A stretch of DNA of 64,000 bases from Candidatus Microgenomates bacterium (lineage in GTDB: Bacteria; Patescibacteriota; Microgenomatia; UBA8517), in the NCBI GenBank assembly GCA_049523135.1, contig JBEKNE010000001.1, positions 287,770 through 351,769 on the forward strand, read 5' to 3'. The notes under the pieces were generated by a model that was not told where the DNA came from, searched no databases, and worked only from the letters and a program-made list of their open reading frames with translations. Positions 4,462 through 64,000 of this stretch are shown one piece after another. The position numbers and the translations under genes are program-made. The number at the start of each line of letters is the position of its first letter. Positions within the stretch are counted from its first letter, which is position 1.

Positions 4462-4529
4462 TGAGTATTTTATATCACCAAACAAAATCCGAAACAAGTA
4501 TGCACTTCAGCTTGCGCTATAATCAAATT

Positions 4530-5156
4530 ATGTTGGGAACGAGGGTCTTGGAAGAAAGAGAATCAAAATACAACGGCAATCTGCGCGTGATTAATACTTT
4601 TGGAATGGGAACTTATATCCAAGCGGATGGGCTTACACAGTCAGGGGGAATAGTGGAAACAATTTGGAGACAAACTATCAAGAAAGTTAAAAGTAAAAAA
4701 CCGAAAGCTAAAAATTGTCTAATCTTGGGGCTTGGTGGCGGAACTGTGGCAAAATTAATTAAAAAAAACTGGCCGGAAGTTAGAATTGCAGGAATCGAAA
4801 TAGATCCGATTATGATAGAACTCGGGAAAAAATATTTAGGACTGGATCAGTTAGAGGTTGAAACAAAAATTGGAGACGCGTTTCAAGTAAATCAAAAATT
4901 AAAAAATGAAAAGTTTGATTTAATTATTGTCGATTTATATAACGGCGATAAATTTCCCGAAAAATTTGGAACGGAAAACTATATACGGTTTATGAGGACA
5001 ATTCTTACAAGTGGGGGAATTGTCGTTTTCAATCGTTTATATTATGGAGACAAAAGGCCGGAGACGGTAAAGTTTGGAGATAAACTCAAAAAAATCTTTT
5101 CGGAAGTTGAATGGTTTTATCCTGAGGCTAATTTGATGTTTCTTTGTTCAGGGTAG
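4530..5156 (+). CDS. Spermidine-synthase-like class I SAM-dependent methyltransferase-fold protein (short form)
   Basis: Gly-rich SAM/dcSAM loop LILGLGGGTVA and an IVDLYNGD acidic motif resembling aminopropyltransferases. Start placed at the ATG 6 nt downstream of a TATAAT (4518-4523). The upstream in-frame ATG at 4500 is the alternative. Confidence 0.5.
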   Translation: MLGTRVLEERESKYNGNLRVINTFGMGTYIQADGLTQSGGIVETIWRQTIKKVKSKKPKAKNCLILGLGGGTVAKLIKKNWPEVRIAGIEIDPIMIELGKKYLGLDQLEVETKIGDAFQVNQKLKNEKFDLIIVDLYNGDKFPEKFGTENYIRFMRTILTSGGIVVFNRLYYGDKRPETVKFGDKLKKIFSEVEWFYPEANLMFLCSG

Positions 5157-18811: not shown

Positions 18812-19312
18812 ATGAATGAAAAAGACGGTCTATTTATAAGTCCCACCAAAGGTAGGATGACTTCTTCTGAGGCTATTGAGGATATATCAAAATTTATAAA
18901 TGAAATGCCTGAAAAGTTTTACCGGATCGTAATAGGTTCGGATTCTCAGGCCAAAAGGACCAACGGTAAAAGCGAAGTTGACTATGTTACGGCTTTGATA
19001 GTCCATCGGGAAGGCTGTGGAGCCAGGTATTTTTGGAGGAAGGAAAAAGTTTTTCAGACTCCAATTCTGAGGGATAAAATTTATAGAGAAACTTCAATGT
19101 CGCTTGCCACCGCCGAGGAAGTAGTTCCTCTCCTTAGGGAAGCTATTTCCCCCACAAAATATAATTTTGAGATCCATATTGATGTTGGACCCTTGGGTCC
19201 TACCCGCGATATGATAAACGAGGTAACCGGTATGGTTCAGGGAAACGGCTTCAAAGCCAAAACCAAGCCCGAGAGCTGGGGAGCTTCAACTGTTGCGGAT
19301 AAACACACCTAA
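18812..19312 (+). CDS. Hypothetical protein (possibly YkuK/DUF458-like RNase-H-like fold; assignment from memory only)
   Basis: 166-aa ORF preceded by TTGATC-17-TATAAT. No motif I can assign firmly. Confidence 0.45.
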   Translation: MNEKDGLFISPTKGRMTSSEAIEDISKFINEMPEKFYRIVIGSDSQAKRTNGKSEVDYVTALIVHREGCGARYFWRKEKVFQTPILRDKIYRETSMSLATAEEVVPLLREAISPTKYNFEIHIDVGPLGPTRDMINEVTGMVQGNGFKAKTKPESWGASTVADKHT

Positions 19313-19325
19313 ATACCCTGTAGTC

Positions 19326-19354
19326 TTGACTTTTAGATTCAGTAGTGGTAGCAT
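19326..19354 (+). promoter_or_regulatory. Possible promoter (TTGACT - 17 nt - TAGCAT) driving a ~135-nt leader for the GC-rich Nudix-like gene
   Basis: Hexamers at 19326-19331 and 19349-19354; a strong AAGGAG RBS lies downstream at ~19481-19486. Confidence 0.35.
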
Positions 19355-19422
19355 CTCTCCGTTCGTGGAATAACTCGCCCTTTCAAATCAGCTTCAAATT
19401 ACACCCTAAATTCATTTTAGAG

Positions 19423-19437
19423 GTGCCCGAACAATTT
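19423..19437. repeat. Left arm of an inverted-repeat pair flanking the GC-rich gene (GTGCCCGAACAATT)
   Basis: A perfect 12-nt reverse-complement match (GTGCCCGAACAA vs TTGTTCGGGCAC at 20183-20194), extending to 15 nt with one mismatch. GC-rich in an AT-rich background. Confidence 0.6.
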
Positions 19438-19494
19438 TGGGTAAAAAACTGTTATAAATCTATATTTTGAAAAGCCAAGAAAAGGAGAAAAGAA

Positions 19495-20181
19495 ATGGCT
19501 ACTCAGAAGTTCGTTCCTGTAAGTGAAATCGATTCCAAACTTCTTCCGAAAATTCAAAATTACCTTCCAAGGTATGAGAACGGCATTTTTGTCGGTCTCG
19601 GAAAAACCGGGAAAGATTCGTACATTCGTGGATTCGTCTGCGATGTCGAAGATGACGGAACGATCGTAAAAGTCAGGTACGATGCCCTCAAGAAATTTGA
19701 TGGGCTTGTCGGCGAAGACGGTCATGCGACTCCAAGCGCGGTTATGGTGGTTGCGGAAAGTCGTGCAGACGGCATCTATCTCTATTGTGCCCCTGAGTAT
19801 CGCGTCTTTATCTATGACCATGTTAATAATCAACTTGGTGTTACAGTAGAAGGCTTTGCGGGCGGATTTACGGAAAAAGGTAAGGAACCGGCGGAGACGG
19901 CATTGGAAGAGGTTCTTCAGGAACATGGTATTGTTGTCGGAGCCGTTTGGCCTATTGTGCGAATCGGATATGCCTCGGATAATCGAGCCATGACTGAGAC
20001 GTGCATTGAATATTATCTTGGTATGTTTGAACGCCAGGTCGGCCAAGATCTACAAGGGGATGAAGTTATCCAAAAAACCGAAGCAATTCGTGTCGATCAC
20101 TTTGTTCCCGGTCTTGACGGTATCGTCGATACGGCTTACGCTTTCTTGGTTTCGCACCTCAAGCTTGTCAAGCCAATGTAA
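19495..20181 (+). CDS. Nudix-fold protein with degenerate Nudix box; GC-rich, probably horizontally acquired
   Basis: Strong AAGGAG RBS 8 nt upstream of ATG. The segment GGFTEKGKEPAETALEEVLQEHGI aligns position-by-position with the Nudix box but has K, E and Q at three catalytic positions. GC content is clearly higher than in neighbouring genes. Confidence 0.6.
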   Translation: MATQKFVPVSEIDSKLLPKIQNYLPRYENGIFVGLGKTGKDSYIRGFVCDVEDDGTIVKVRYDALKKFDGLVGEDGHATPSAVMVVAESRADGIYLYCAPEYRVFIYDHVNNQLGVTVEGFAGGFTEKGKEPAETALEEVLQEHGIVVGAVWPIVRIGYASDNRAMTETCIEYYLGMFERQVGQDLQGDEVIQKTEAIRVDHFVPGLDGIVDTAYAFLVSHLKLVKPM

Positions 20182-20194
20182 TTTGTTCGGGCAC
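20180..20194. repeat. Right arm of the inverted-repeat pair (AATTTGTTCGGGCAC), abutting the stop codon of the Nudix-like gene
   Basis: See the left arm; the arm centres are 758 bp apart. Confidence 0.6.
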
Positions 20195-20202
20195 TTCTGG
20201 CG

Positions 20203-20261
20203 CCAGCCCCTCTTGGGAATACTGTATCAATTGCTGCTACTGATACAAAAGAGGTGGCTGG
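20203..20261 (+). other. Branched stem-loop: 12-bp GC-rich outer stem with one bulged T, enclosing a 34-nt loop that contains a nested 6-7 bp hairpin (GTATCA...TGATAC)
   Basis: CCAGCCCCTCTT (20203-20214) pairs with AAGAGG-T-GGCTGG (20249-20261). Inner stem 20224-20229/20241-20246. Confidence 0.45.
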
Positions 20262-20279
20262 TTGTCATGAAGAAGTTGC

Positions 20280-20340
20280 CTGTGCGGTTGTAAGAATTTT
20301 AATTTACAAAAATTAAAAGATCCCAACCGCACAGCAAGAA
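20280..20340 (+). terminator. Second branched stem-loop (11-bp outer stem CTGTGCGGTTG/CAACCGCACAG with a nested perfect 9-bp AT hairpin) followed by a T-rich tract; probable intrinsic terminator for the 19495..20181 transcript
   Basis: Outer stem 20280-20290/20324-20334; inner TTTTAATTT-acaa-AAATTAAAA at 20297-20318; downstream sequence ...attttcatttttta. Confidence 0.4.
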
Positions 20341-20427
20341 TAAAGTATTTTCATTTTTTATATACAAACTTCATGTTTGTTGAAGCAATTCAAGACCAAT
20401 TCCTATTTTTCGAATCTTAATTGAAGA

Positions 20428-20456
20428 TTGCATCTCGTCGTTTCTTTTGCTACTAT
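20428..20456 (+). promoter_or_regulatory. Sigma70-like promoter (TTGCAT - 17 nt - TACTAT) 7 nt upstream of the rfbF ATG (leaderless-type)
   Basis: Hexamers at 20428-20433 and 20451-20456; ATG at 20464; no SD. Confidence 0.45.
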
Positions 20457-20463
20457 TTAAGCC

Positions 20464-21255
20464 ATGCAGACAGTTATTTTGTGCGGCGGCAAGGGCACAA
20501 GAATGAAAGAAGAGACGGAATTTCGTCCCAAGCCACTGGTTGAGATAGGTGGTATACCAATCCTCTGGCATATTATGCAAATCTACATGTACTATGGTTA
20601 TAACGACTTCATCTTGGCGTTAGGATATAAGGGAAACATGATCCGCGACCTATTTAAGGAGTGGTATACAAATACGAACGATTTCTCCATTGATATGTCT
20701 ACCGGTAAGACTACGGTTTTGAGTAATAGGCAGAGAAATTTTAAAGTCACTTTGGTAGAGACCGGGGACACACCCGATAAAGAAATCTTAACCGGTGAGA
20801 GAATTTTAAGGACAGCCCCATACATTAAAGGTGATGAATTTATGCTTACCTATGGTGACGGGGTTTCCGATATCGATATAAAGAAAGTCGTAGACTTTCA
20901 TCATAAGATGGGAACTCTGGCTACTGTTTCAGGTGTCCATCCCAAATCCAGATTCGGCCTTGTCGAAAGAGATAATAAAACAGGACTGGTTACTCAGTTT
21001 AGTCAGTATCCTGTCATGCGTGAGTATATAAGTGGAGGTTTTATGGTTTTTAAAAGAAAAGCCTTGGACTATTTTACAGACGGTCAGATGGAAGAAGGTT
21101 TGGGTCATCTTGCTGAAGACAAGCAGTTATCAATGTATATTCACGAAGGATTCTGGAAGGCTGTTGATACATATAAAGAATTGGAACAACTTAATCAGCT
21201 TTGGTATGATGGCCGTCCTTGGGCCGTATGGGAGAAAAAAGATAATCAGAAATGA
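20464..21255 (+). CDS. rfbF: Glucose-1-phosphate cytidylyltransferase
   Basis: Near-collinear similarity to Salmonella RfbF/Yersinia DdhA: MQTVILCGGKGTRMKEE..RPKPLVEIGGIPILWHIM ... LTYGDGVSDIDI ... GGFMVF. Confidence 0.9.
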   Translation: MQTVILCGGKGTRMKEETEFRPKPLVEIGGIPILWHIMQIYMYYGYNDFILALGYKGNMIRDLFKEWYTNTNDFSIDMSTGKTTVLSNRQRNFKVTLVETGDTPDKEILTGERILRTAPYIKGDEFMLTYGDGVSDIDIKKVVDFHHKMGTLATVSGVHPKSRFGLVERDNKTGLVTQFSQYPVMREYISGGFMVFKRKALDYFTDGQMEEGLGHLAEDKQLSMYIHEGFWKAVDTYKELEQLNQLWYDGRPWAVWEKKDNQK

Positions 21256-22319
21256 AGGAAGACCTTGGAAAATTTTTTAAGGGTAAAAAAGTCCTTATAA
21301 CAGGTCATACCGGCTTCAAGGGAGCTTGGCTTGCCGAAGTTCTCACTCTCTGGGGAGCCAAAGTAATCGGAGTATCTCTGGAGCCATACACGGAACCCAA
21401 TCTCTACACTGTTCTTAAACTTGGTGAAAAGGTAAATAATTATTTTGCCGATATCACGGATCAAAGGAGGCTGGCGGATATTTTTGCAAAAGAACAGCCG
21501 GAAATTGTTTTTCACTTGGCAGCCCAAGCAATAGTCAAGATAAGTTATGAGGATCCTCTCCGTACATTTAGGGCAAATGTCATAGGATCTGCAAATGTAC
21601 TTCAAACAATCCGCGAGACAAAATCGGTTAAAACCGGAGTAATGATAACTTCTGACAAGGTTTACGAAAATAAAGAGTGGGTACATCCGTACCGTGAGAT
21701 AGACAGGCTTGGAGGGCACGATCCGTACAGTGCCAGTAAAGCCGCAGCGGACATTATTGATCAGTCTTTCATAAAATCTTTTTTCACTGAGGAAACTGAT
21801 CCCTTTGTCGGTATTACCCGTGCGGGAAATGTCATTGGAGGTGGGGATTGGTCGCCTTACAGAATTATTCCGGACGTGGTACGTGCAATTTACGAAAAAG
21901 GCGAAGCTGTCGTAATTCGAAACCCTCAGTCAATTAGGCCTTGGCAGTTTGTTTTGGAGCCGCTTTCCGGTTATCTTCTTCTTGCCAAAAAACTATTTGA
22001 AGGTGACAGGTCATTAATAACCACTTGGAATTTTGGTCCGCATCAGGGCAATTTTGTAACTGTTTCTGAGTTGGTTGAAGCCGGAGTTAAAATTCTCGAC
22101 AAGGGTTCATACAAAGTTGTGCCCGATAAGAGTTTTCACGAATCAACATTTTTAAAACTCGATATTTCCAAAGCCCACGATCTCCTTGGCTGGAGTCCAA
22201 AACTGGATATCAAAGAAACATTGGGATACACATACGATTGGTATAAAAATTATTATGAGCATCTGAAGTCTCCAACTGAATTTACCGATAAGCAGATAAC
22301 CGAATATTTTTCTAAATAA
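21252..22319 (+). CDS. rfbG: CDP-glucose 4,6-dehydratase
   Basis: KVLITGHTGFKGAWL Rossmann motif, YSASKAA catalytic region, RAGNVIGGGDW and IRPWQFVLEPLSGY motifs shared with RfbG/DdhB. Start overlaps the rfbF stop. Confidence 0.9.
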   Translation: MKEDLGKFFKGKKVLITGHTGFKGAWLAEVLTLWGAKVIGVSLEPYTEPNLYTVLKLGEKVNNYFADITDQRRLADIFAKEQPEIVFHLAAQAIVKISYEDPLRTFRANVIGSANVLQTIRETKSVKTGVMITSDKVYENKEWVHPYREIDRLGGHDPYSASKAAADIIDQSFIKSFFTEETDPFVGITRAGNVIGGGDWSPYRIIPDVVRAIYEKGEAVVIRNPQSIRPWQFVLEPLSGYLLLAKKLFEGDRSLITTWNFGPHQGNFVTVSELVEAGVKILDKGSYKVVPDKSFHESTFLKLDISKAHDLLGWSPKLDIKETLGYTYDWYKNYYEHLKSPTEFTDKQITEYFSK

Positions 22320-25275: not shown

Positions 25276-26226
25276 ATGAGTACGAAAAAGGTGGGTATTT
25301 CAGTCGTAATTGTCAGTTGGAACACCAAGGAAATAACAGATACATGCTTGGCTTCAATGAAGAAGGCTGTGGATTATGTTAAGGATAGGGCAAATGTCGA
25401 GGTAATTGTGGTTGAAAACGCCTCAGAAGACGGGTCTTTTGAGATGATTGCTAAAAAACACCCCTGGGTTAAGTTAAAGTCCTCGGGTGCCGACTTAGGT
25501 TATGGTAAAGGAAATAATTTTGGATATAAACTTTGCGATTCAAAAAATGAATATCTGCTTCTTCTTAATAACGACGCTTATGTAAATGAAGATACCCTGG
25601 CCAGATCGTTGGATTTTATGGCTGGTCACCCCGATTGTGGCGTACTTGGCTGCCAACTTAGATTTTTAGACGGCAGATTCCAACCCTCGGCCGGTTTCTT
25701 GCCGACCCCGGCTTCGGTTTGGTCCTGGATTTGGGGGTTAAGCCTCGTTCCGGGAGTCAAATTGTTTTTCAAACCATTTCATCCTGCCGATAAGGATTTC
25801 TTTAAAAAAGACCGTGAAGTTGGTTGGACAATGGGAGCTTTCTTGTTTATGAAAATGGAGGTCTTTAAGGATAGCAAAGGCTTTGATGAAAACTTCTTTA
25901 TGTATATGGAAGAAGTGGAATGGTGCAGACGCGCCAAAAAAGCAGGTTATAGAATCTTTTATACGCCAAGTTTCTGGGTGACCCATGTAGATAAGGCAAG
26001 TGCGATGGGTAAACCCGAAGAGCTTGCAAAGATCTTTAGGCGCGAGATTTTAGGGTTTGTTTATTACCTAAACAAAAATTACAAAAACCAATCTTGGTGG
26101 TTTATTCCGGCGATTAAGGCCGGAATTGCCTTGCGTTTATTGGCTTTTACTTTGTTAGGTAATAAAATGAGGCAAGACGCTTATAAGCAAACGCTTGAGC
26201 AATTCGGGAAAGCGCTTTCAAACTAA
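25276..26226 (+). CDS. GT2-family glycosyltransferase (rhamnosyltransferase-like)
   Basis: ISVVIVSWNT ... VVENASEDGS ... LLLNNDAY motifs, the DxD region, and a C-terminal amphipathic/TM tail. Confidence 0.8.
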   Translation: MSTKKVGISVVIVSWNTKEITDTCLASMKKAVDYVKDRANVEVIVVENASEDGSFEMIAKKHPWVKLKSSGADLGYGKGNNFGYKLCDSKNEYLLLLNNDAYVNEDTLARSLDFMAGHPDCGVLGCQLRFLDGRFQPSAGFLPTPASVWSWIWGLSLVPGVKLFFKPFHPADKDFFKKDREVGWTMGAFLFMKMEVFKDSKGFDENFFMYMEEVEWCRRAKKAGYRIFYTPSFWVTHVDKASAMGKPEELAKIFRREILGFVYYLNKNYKNQSWWFIPAIKAGIALRLLAFTLLGNKMRQDAYKQTLEQFGKALSN

Positions 26227-63720: not shown

Positions 63721-64000
63721 TTAAACTCTCAGTTATTCTGGCTACGAGGAATGAAGAAGAAAATATTGGCAGGTGTTTAGAGTCTGTCAAAAATATTGTC
63801 GATGAGATAATTGTGGTTGATGAAAATTCAACTGATAAAACCCGCGAAATTGCCGAAAAAAATGGAGCGAAAGTATTTTTGGAACCCCATCATGATATTT
63901 TTCATATAACTAAAGAAAAGGCTTTGGAAAAAGCGACAGGGGATTGGATACTTCAACTTGATGCGGATGAGGTTGTAACCTCTGAACTGTCGAAAGAAAT
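63717..64000 (+). CDS. GT2 glycosyltransferase, WaaE/KdtX-like; 3' end outside window
   Basis: MIKLSVILATRNEEENIGRCLESV...DEIIVVDENSTDKTREIAEKNGAKVF...ILQLDADEVV; paralog of 36806... ATGA overlap with the upstream stop. Confidence 0.7.
   Translation, partial: MIKLSVILATRNEEENIGRCLESVKNIVDEIIVVDENSTDKTREIAEKNGAKVFLEPHHDIFHITKEKALEKATGDWILQLDADEVVTSELSKE

Follow-up and report, generated by a model that had tools for sequence, protein, structure and literature searches.

Two consecutive branched hairpins, H1 and H2, lie between genes of a 64,000-nucleotide (nt) stretch of contig JBEKNE010000001.1 from a Candidatus Microgenomates bacterium; the whole stretch is called the window here, and positions are those of the window unless another locus is named. 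With a probability of roughly 0.6, the two hairpins belong to an RNA architecture that acts in cis, surrounds one NUDIX-fold gene and is conserved in Microgenomates (Patescibacteria, or candidate phyla radiation, CPR); they would be its 3′ untranslated region (UTR) domain. An element of ~165 nt is found at the same place, after the stop codon of the NUDIX-type gene, in 16 distinct Microgenomates/Patescibacteria lineages. The sequence just 5′ of H1, which the initial annotation of the hairpins left outside its coordinates, pairs with the 5′ UTR of the same gene. As judged by sequence comparison, what is conserved is a + strand RNA architecture that consists of a promoter, a 5′ UTR, a clamp around the open reading frame (ORF), H1 on a basal helix P1, and H2. 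Confidence in the structure is high; it is modest for the mechanism, which is most likely that of a cis-acting mRNA switch or clamp acting on 3′-end formation, processing or stability.

The two hairpins of the 3′ UTR

Both hairpins are held in a gap of 282 nt between a 228-residue ORF (19495-20181) and an rfbF-like gene (20464-21255). Their parts are as follows.

20194-20272, + strand: P1 plus H1, from the fold and the covariance alignment
20194-20199 with 20266-20272: P1, the basal helix under H1, CUUCUG with CAuGAAG
20203-20214 with 20249-20261, + strand: outer stem of H1, CCAGCCCCTCTT with AAGAGG(T)GGCTGG, one T bulged
20223-20229 with 20241-20247: inner stem of H1 as present in the window, (T)GTATCA with TGATAC(A)
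20224-20240: apical hairpin of H1 with an AUUGC loop
20276-20337, + strand: H2, with an invariant base, a covarying middle stem and an A/U apical stem
within 20276-20337: base of H2, UUGCC(U)GUGCGGU with ACCGCAC(R)GCAA; in the initial annotation the outer stem of H2 was given as CTGTGCGGTTG with CAACCGCACAG
20297-20305 with 20310-20318: inner stem of H2, which is the A/U apical stem, TTTTAATTT with AAATTAAAA
20338-20344, + strand: GAAUAAA after H2 (consensus GAACAAA), a copy of the GAACAAA in the 5′ arm of the long-range helix described below

Folding of 20195-20360 with RNAfold gives exactly the two nested hairpins, at -56.8 kcal/mol on the + strand as compared with -34.7 ± 3.8 kcal/mol for 200 dinucleotide shuffles, none of which folds as well (z = -5.9); the - strand gives z = -6.0. 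All of the stems named in the initial annotation are present and reproduced. The outer stems enclose loops of 33-34 nt, and all H1 and H2 arms folded alone have z values from -4.1 to -7.3.

Two details of that annotation stand for the window but not for its relatives. The inner GTATCA/TGATAC stem is restricted to the lineage of the window; the inner hairpin conserved in H1 overlaps it and carries an AUUGC cap, GUAuCA-AUUGC-UGcUAC, with a U.C mismatch in the window and full pairing in L008 and other relatives (L numbers denote the loci and contigs compared). The T-rich run said to follow H2 does exist, but it begins 9 nt past the extended H2 stem (UUGC/GCAA, ending at 20337), or 12 nt past the CAACCGCACAG strand, and is not kept in relatives.

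The homologues compared have ORFs of 44-90% identity to that of the window, with L008 at 90%. In L001-L007, contigs with an identical ORF, the gap is 100% identical and offers no variation to use. In distant homologues the gap after the stop codon opens with UUUGUUCGGGCRC, followed by a long hairpin of lineage-specific stem sequence, and most relatives have a second hairpin after H1 whose base is kept, UUGCC(U)GUGCGG...CCGCACGGCAA. An exact-pattern scan of metagenome contigs for the H2 base returned 56 loci, about 43 of which are GC-rich chance matches. The 13 genuine elements gave seven new lineages after removal of duplicates, of two that were already known and of one incomplete copy. There was one match per contig, in contigs of up to 256 kb, and the genuine elements always stand in the same gene neighbourhood, although the upstream ORF at several of these loci lacks detectable similarity to that of the window. 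Three unrelated GC-rich contigs (L025 at 650-760, L060 and L062) share another nested palindrome, GTAGCACAGGCACTCTTGCCTGTGCGG...CCGCACAGCAAAGAGTGGCTGTGCTAC, which probably represents repeats from a different phylum that contain the H2 base by chance.

A covariance model built from eight sequences has exactly one full-length + strand match in each of 15 loci, scoring 65-181 bits, and a sixteenth match in L077, a 771-kb NCBI contig. Within the window the element is single copy by both repeat search and covariance model; the model has no other + strand match there, and its - strand matches are weak and correspond to the H2 palindrome. A sequence-only MAFFT alignment of 15 elements misaligned H1, such that RNAalifold recovered H2 only, and the covariance-model alignment was used instead.

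In the model-fitted alignment, 90.4% of cells are paired, as compared with 81% in shuffled alignments and 44-53% when the partners are slid, and 25 of 48 pairs have changes on both sides, which none of 500 shuffles reaches. Compensatory pairs account for 17 of 21 in P1 and the H1 outer stem and for six of eight in the H1 apical stem, and every lineage keeps the pairing of the H2 middle and apical stems despite their differing sequences. The element has 53 G.U cells and 12 A.C cells, and this excess indicates that the + strand transcript is the folding strand. The covariation analysis shows that homologous loci keep their pairing despite changes in stem sequence, and the proposal of a structured RNA, more precisely a 3′ UTR element, is borne out in at least 16 lineages by compensatory changes and by a strong preference for G.U over A.C on the + strand.

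The H2 base behaves differently. It shows no covariation and only one-sided substitutions of the G.U type, and it is near-invariant also in seven loci that were found via their proteins and not by the DNA pattern. The repeated two-level design that had been seen in the pair is thus a superficial likeness: H1 is variable and covarying, whereas the 12-bp base of H2 is invariant.

No Rfam family matches the element. The Rfam scan that had been proposed was run with Rfam 15 on 19000-21500 (E <= 10) and gave miRNA and CRISPR matches at noise level only, with no family match, and ten homologous loci gave no match at E <= 0.1. No tRNA was found in the hairpin region. Hammerhead- and twister-type junctions were set aside by eye given that their core sequences are absent, and signal recognition particle RNA, 6S RNA and 5S rRNA were also set aside by eye. 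Retron msr/msd and diversity-generating retroelement hairpins were set aside, as there is no reverse transcriptase among the Pfam matches of the neighbours and, by eye, no template/variable repeat pair. A read-through coding extension was set aside by eye, as relatives do not keep one frame with respect to the stop codon.

A long-range helix around the NUDIX-type gene

The second part of the architecture is a long-range helix, the clamp, between the two UTRs. The features that it involves are listed from 5′ to 3′.

19326-19354, + strand: promoter of the NUDIX-type gene, TTGACT, 17 nt, TAGCAT with an upstream TG (promoter scan)
19374-19401, + strand: conserved 5′ UTR block, consensus UUGCYCUUUAAAAU..AGCUUCAAAUU (5′ UTR alignment)
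19402-19425, + strand: local 5′ hairpin, CACC-CUAAA with UUUAG-a-GGUG (RNAalifold and helix scan)
19417-19434, + strand: 5′ arm of the clamp, UUAGAGGUGCCCGAACAA (RNAduplex, inverted repeat I8, covariation over 16 loci)
19495-20181, + strand: 228-residue ORF inside the clamp, assigned by fold comparison to the NUDIX fold of the ADP-ribose pyrophosphatase (NUDT5) type
20181-20200, + strand: 3′ arm of the clamp, AUUUGUUCGGGCACUUCUGG, which begins at the last base of the TAA stop codon (20179-20181)

When the gaps of the window were folded and read by eye, GGUGCCCGAACAA in the 5′ UTR of the ORF was seen to be the exact complement of the conserved UUGUUCGGGCAC past its stop codon. The first model, a closed three-way junction made by a helix P0 (UUUGUUC/GAACAAA) with GGGCAC unpaired, was demoted once the partner of UUUGUUCGGGCAC had been found in the 5′ UTR. 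The arms are ~760 nt apart in the window, where RNAduplex pairs 19417-19434 with 20183-20200 over 18 bp at -30.3 kcal/mol, and in all 16 loci with enough upstream sequence the partner lies 620-890 nt upstream. The window has no second bracket of this kind.

Across the 19 pairs of the clamp, 89.8% of cells are paired, as compared with 37-54% when the arms are slid, in an ungapped MAFFT alignment of the arms that was not fitted to structure, and ten of the 19 pairs are compensatory over the 16 loci (0 of 500 shuffles). Variants include UUAUUC/GAAUAA in L008, GGACAC/GUGUCC in L059, and UUUGGGC/GCCCAAA in L013, L014 and L076; in L019 and L020 the arms are wholly different yet complementary, UUCAAGGU/ACCUUGAA. 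There are 42 G.U cells and four A.C cells, and 15 of 16 loci share one particular G.U, such that a DNA-level inverted repeat or a protein operator is excluded as the selected feature. When the UTR alignments were concatenated, RNAalifold chose the clamp over the local alternatives, and a blind scan for conserved helices returned it as the top match (15 columns, 97% paired). For the window, the UTRs cofold at -93.5 kcal/mol as compared with -85.1 kcal/mol for the parts folded separately, a gain of ~8 kcal/mol.

Each arm of the clamp also has a local competitor, so that the RNA could take an open or a clamped state; the local and the long-range pairings are mutually exclusive. The local 5′ hairpin sequesters half of the 5′ arm and has compensatory variants of its own, CUUAA/UUAAG in L013 and L014 and CCUAA/UUAGG in L059. 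The 3′ arm shares CUUCUG, the 5′ strand of P1, and its UUUGUUC (20182-20188) can pair locally with the GAACAAA after H2 to form P0 and close a three-way junction. P0 is weak: 75% of cells are paired, two of seven pairs are compensatory, and it occurs in the single-sequence minimum free energy (MFE) fold of seven of 15 lineages. At the conserved G.U of the clamp, each strand has a Watson-Crick partner in the local alternative, as would be expected of a sequence that serves two partners. Two other contacts were rejected that fit some sequences and show no clear covariation, namely AGCUUC of the 5′ UTR with the freed GAAGUU, which pairs in the cofold of the window, and a kissing contact between the H1 loop and the 5′ UTR, AAUUGC/GCAAUU.

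Some lineages lack parts of the architecture. Both clamp arms are lost together in L038, with H1 and H2 kept, and L012, L019 and L020 have the clamp and H1 followed by a U-run (U4-U7) with H2 missing. Therefore, the clamp, H1 and H2 are separable modules, of which H1 is the constant one.

In 14 of 16 loci, no more than 3 nt separate a stop codon from the 3′ arm. In L018 (3104-3118) and L070 (2881-2895), two in-frame TAA codons are found four codons apart, the second directly adjoining the 3′ arm, and it looks as if the TAA touching the arm is the ancestral stop.

On the 5′ side, transcription is predicted to start near 19361, which gives a 5′ UTR of about 130 nt. The -35, the extended -10 and an upstream box are kept in 15 of 16 aligned loci and in L038 and L077, and L029 is without the TTGAC -35. 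The box, TATCCTATAA-like or (T)ATCCTATAA(C/T), abuts TTGAC(T/A)TTT, followed by TGnTAnnAT; this region is at 19310-19354 in the window. The box is also present in L008, L012-L016, L018-L020, L035, L038, L059, L064, L070, L076 and L077, and absent from L029; it could serve as an UP element or bind a regulator. In nearly all loci the promoter and most of the 5′ UTR are kept, and they are better conserved than the enclosed protein.

The enclosed ORFs encode 190-300 residues. That of the window has a sub-threshold Pfam NUDIX match (E = 0.0034), its homologues carry PF00293, and its NUDIX box looks degenerate when the translation is read by eye. Its AlphaFold2 model has a pLDDT of 81, and Foldseek against the PDB matches NUDT5/ADPRase at an E of about 6e-6 and TM 0.45-0.5. 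The L029-type ORF has a Pfam NUDIX match above the gathering score (28.2 vs 21.1 bits, E 2e-6). For the L070-type ORF, an AlphaFold2 model of moderate confidence (pLDDT 69) matches NUDIX folds only, and weakly, at an E of about 1e-2. The other upstream ORF families, the L070 type included, have no Pfam or NCBIfam match, and profile-profile comparison of these families with the NUDIX alignment was not significant. The frame seems to hold NUDIX-fold proteins that have diverged past sequence recognition while the flanking RNA stays recognisable.

Proposed function and alternative explanations

The proposed transcript would run from the promoter through a ~130-nt 5′ UTR, the ORF, AUUUGUUCGGGCACUUCUGG, H1, CAYGAAG-UUUU and H2 to GAACAAA, and long-range pairing over 18-19 bp would place the whole ORF inside a closed loop. 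The open state would have the local hairpins and a complete H1 on P1; the clamped state would have the 5′-3′ helix and an H1 without its base. A ribosome that reaches the stop codon next to the 3′ arm would, on terminating, melt the clamp or keep it from forming. Which state is taken might then govern 3′-end formation at H1/H2, the supply of a ~20-bp duplex for RNase III-type processing, or both, with the stability and amount of the NUDIX mRNA as the outcome and with the next gene, ancestrally rho, insulated. H2, with its invariant base, is most likely a site for a sequence-specific protein or nuclease, or a 3′ stabiliser.

A bolder version is possible, if doubtful. In short, the mRNA would be a closed-loop switch in which terminating ribosomes open the clamp and couple translation of the fast-evolving NUDIX-fold gene to 3′-end formation or decay, and an excised H1-H2, with its invariant H2 base, would be dedicated to binding a protein, perhaps the product of the NUDIX-fold gene, in a clade-wide CPR module without a counterpart in model bacteria.

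Several points weigh against the cis-acting architecture. The MFE fold of the full 1-kb mRNA omits the clamp, although long MFE folds are unreliable. The Shine-Dalgarno sequence AAAGGAG (19481-19487) is outside the 5′ arm, at a spacing that varies between loci, and a direct effect on translation initiation is therefore not evident. The two strands of P0, itself weak, are perhaps conserved for unrelated reasons. The H2 base is without compensatory change and half of the loci were found by a pattern that fixes those bases; given the lack of compensatory change, the case for its pairing comes from folding energies and from the pattern of G.U changes. That transcripts run through H1 and H2, that two conformers exist and that any cleavage takes place are inferences, and the link to RNase III is drawn by analogy.

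H1-H2 could instead be a stable small RNA of ~150 nt, derived from the 3′ UTR or cleaved within the clamp, that acts in trans or with a protein, possibly the NUDIX-fold neighbour. Persistence of H1-H2 without the clamp in L038 is as expected of such an RNA, as are the sequence conservation of the H2 base and junction residues, which resembles that of a specific binding site, and the occurrence of the element once per contig, in contigs of up to 256 kb, like a dedicated gene. It is also better conserved than the neighbouring protein. However, the element follows the stop codon too closely to leave space for a promoter of its own, and L012, L019 and L020 do without H2. A small RNA fits much of the evidence but is considered unlikely.

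Plain tandem terminators of the NUDIX gene, either intrinsic or of the U-tract-free "I-shaped" kind, with the branching incidental, are quite unlikely as the whole explanation. An intrinsic terminator has a short GC-rich stem, a loop of 3-8 nt and a U-tract within 0-2 nt. The element resembles intrinsic terminators and 3′ stabilisers in having GC-rich hairpins at the 3′ end of a gene, and at several loci it stands just before a promoter-like sequence, seen by eye, of the next gene. UUUU follows P1/H1 in nine of 15 lineages, the window has its T-run 9 nt past the extended H2 stem, and with the U4-U7 run after H1 in the relatives that lack H2, H1 may well terminate transcription in those lineages. 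It differs in its branched loops of 33-34 nt, in the invariant H2 base and in the P1 strand shared with the clamp. The U-tract is missing from the window, where H1/P1 is followed by AAGUUGCC and H2 by GAAUAAAG with no U-tract adjoining either stem, and is found in part among the relatives, most of which have UUUU after P1. A terminator scan of 19000-21500 called neither hairpin, in agreement with the initial view that these are not simple terminators. Terminators normally drift faster than coding sequence, whereas lineages whose upstream proteins no longer align still share an unchanged H2 base. Finally, tandem terminators leave unexplained the covarying helix between the UTRs that shares a strand with P1.

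A DNA element is very improbable, whether an attC-like site, the terminal inverted repeats of a mobile NUDIX cassette, or a repetitive extragenic palindrome (REP) or miniature inverted-repeat transposable element (MITE). The imperfect palindromes with a bulged base adjoin variable gene content, and an inverted repeat flanks the ORF, which speaks for such an element. Against this, the element is single copy in the window and in each contig, and its synteny is fixed across lineages. No RYYYAAC...GTTRRRY overlaps 20100-20450 on either strand by regular expression, relatives do not keep the GGTTG/CAACC of H2, and there is no cassette array. The inverted repeat is not terminal, because conserved sequence extends outwards from both arms, by ~90 nt on the 5′ side and by ~150 nt on the 3′ side. 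A fixed G/A difference between the clamp arms, seen as G.U in 15 of 16 loci, and the predominance of G.U are meaningful only for a + strand RNA; the conserved G.U would be an A.C mismatch on the other strand, and the recombination-related DNA structure that had been offered as one interpretation is therefore not supported. The same holds for membership in an acquired cassette. L008 has the same element followed by rho, and its similarity to the window ends right after H2; thus the element goes with the upstream NUDIX gene and not with the sugar cassette.

Scarcely any weight can be given to a 5′ leader or riboswitch of the downstream gene, rfbF here and rho elsewhere, which would account for a structured RNA upstream of a gene and for the presence of rho nearby in 11 loci, since the downstream gene differs between close relatives, no Rfam family matches, and promoter-like sequences past H2 (by eye, without a promoter scan) would put the element outside the downstream transcript.

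Related systems and neighbouring genes

Stems cleaved by RNase III bracket the 16S and 23S rRNAs and occur in the early mRNAs of phage T7; they are formed by distant complements over ~20 bp, and the T7 sites are branched hairpins with internal loops. The clamp is similar in that a ~20-bp duplex of distant complements encloses RNA. It differs in that a single protein-coding ORF is enclosed and the helix competes with local structures, and cleavage in this case is suggested by analogy.

Two further systems, in which the UTRs of an mRNA pair, are also among the closest parallels. In the icaR mRNA of Staphylococcus aureus, the 3′ UTR pairs with the Shine-Dalgarno region in its own 5′ UTR, and the duplex is tied to RNase III cleavage and to control of expression (PMC3868564; PMC7821165). 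The Microgenomates clamp likewise pairs the 3′ UTR with the 5′ UTR of the same mRNA, over 18-19 bp, but its 5′ arm lies ~45 nt upstream of a Shine-Dalgarno sequence that remains free. Further differences are the position of the 3′ arm directly at the stop codon, the conserved local pairings that compete for both arms, the two large conserved hairpins downstream, and conservation with covariation across a whole CPR clade. In hok-type type I toxin mRNAs, the fbi/tac 5′-3′ fold-back locks one conformation and local pairings give the active fold (PMC9841398). The opposition of a long-range 5′-3′ helix to alternative local pairings is shared with the element described here. Unlike hok, the enclosed ORF encodes a NUDIX-fold protein of 190-300 residues rather than a small hydrophobic toxin, and neither arm is terminal: the 5′ arm lies inside the 5′ UTR, and the 3′ arm stops short of the transcript end. 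A scan of the region found no antisense promoter, which a hok-like system would have.

Full-text literature searches for CPR or NUDIX-associated RNA motifs, and a term look-up in the paper describing 224 motifs, turned up no description of the element. As far as these searches go, the combination of a clamp with two hairpins is undescribed; long-range 5′-3′ pairing itself is known. To our knowledge, such pairing has been reported for few bacterial mRNAs, mostly from a single species each and lacking support from phylogeny, and very little has been described of gene regulation in CPR bacteria. Here, an uncultivated CPR clade keeps a clamp and a ~165-nt two-hairpin domain under covariation while the protein diverges past recognition. 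The element is a candidate for a new RNA family, for which a model can be built from the alignments, and a candidate case of translation-coupled mRNA folding. For annotation, it suggests that an odd terminator beside a gene cluster of variable content can be the conspicuous part of a larger RNA architecture.

The gene after the element varies among rfbF, rho, a major facilitator superfamily (MFS) transporter and another NUDIX gene, the last identified by Pfam. The rho gene lies within about 1.3 kb downstream in L008, L012, L016, L018, L019, L020, L029, L035, L070, L073 and L077. In four of these, it appears by eye to have its own TTGACA...TATACT promoter after the element (L008 3040-3128, L016 3350-3494, L012 3800-3885, L020 3290-3376), and its 5′ leader carries a conserved motif, TGTAACTTCGAGTTTGTCCGGA; through this leader, rho may regulate its own expression in these CPR bacteria.

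At several loci, promoter-like TTGACA or TGnTAnnAT is seen by eye between H2 and the downstream start codon. Extended -10 sites lie just past H2 in the window (20425-20466), L015 (3195-3219), L018, L029, L038 and L059, and downstream genes begin 6-10 nt after the extended -10 (TGCTACAAT, TGCTAGAAT and TGTTAGAAT, with TGCTACTAT in the window). This spacing suggests that the downstream mRNAs may be leaderless or nearly so.

In the window, the surrounding genes are tightly packed, nearly all on the + strand, with a GC content of 34-43%. The rfbF-like nucleotidyltransferase gene is the first of a long sugar/glycosyltransferase cluster. Such a sugar-nucleotide/glycosyltransferase cluster stands in the window (20464-64000), L013 and L014 where the close relatives L008 and L077 have rho, and the breakpoint between the two arrangements is a few bases from the end of H2. 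By far the biggest gap of this compact region, at 4498-5143, comprises 646 nt without an ORF of at least 70 residues on a crude gene map. A five-copy "direct repeat" family, GTTGATxxxxxxTCxACTGA..., is found at 25411-25455, 28786-28830, 36128-36172, 36905-36949 and 63816-63860, and is most likely a conserved motif of paralogous glycosyltransferase genes rather than a DNA repeat.

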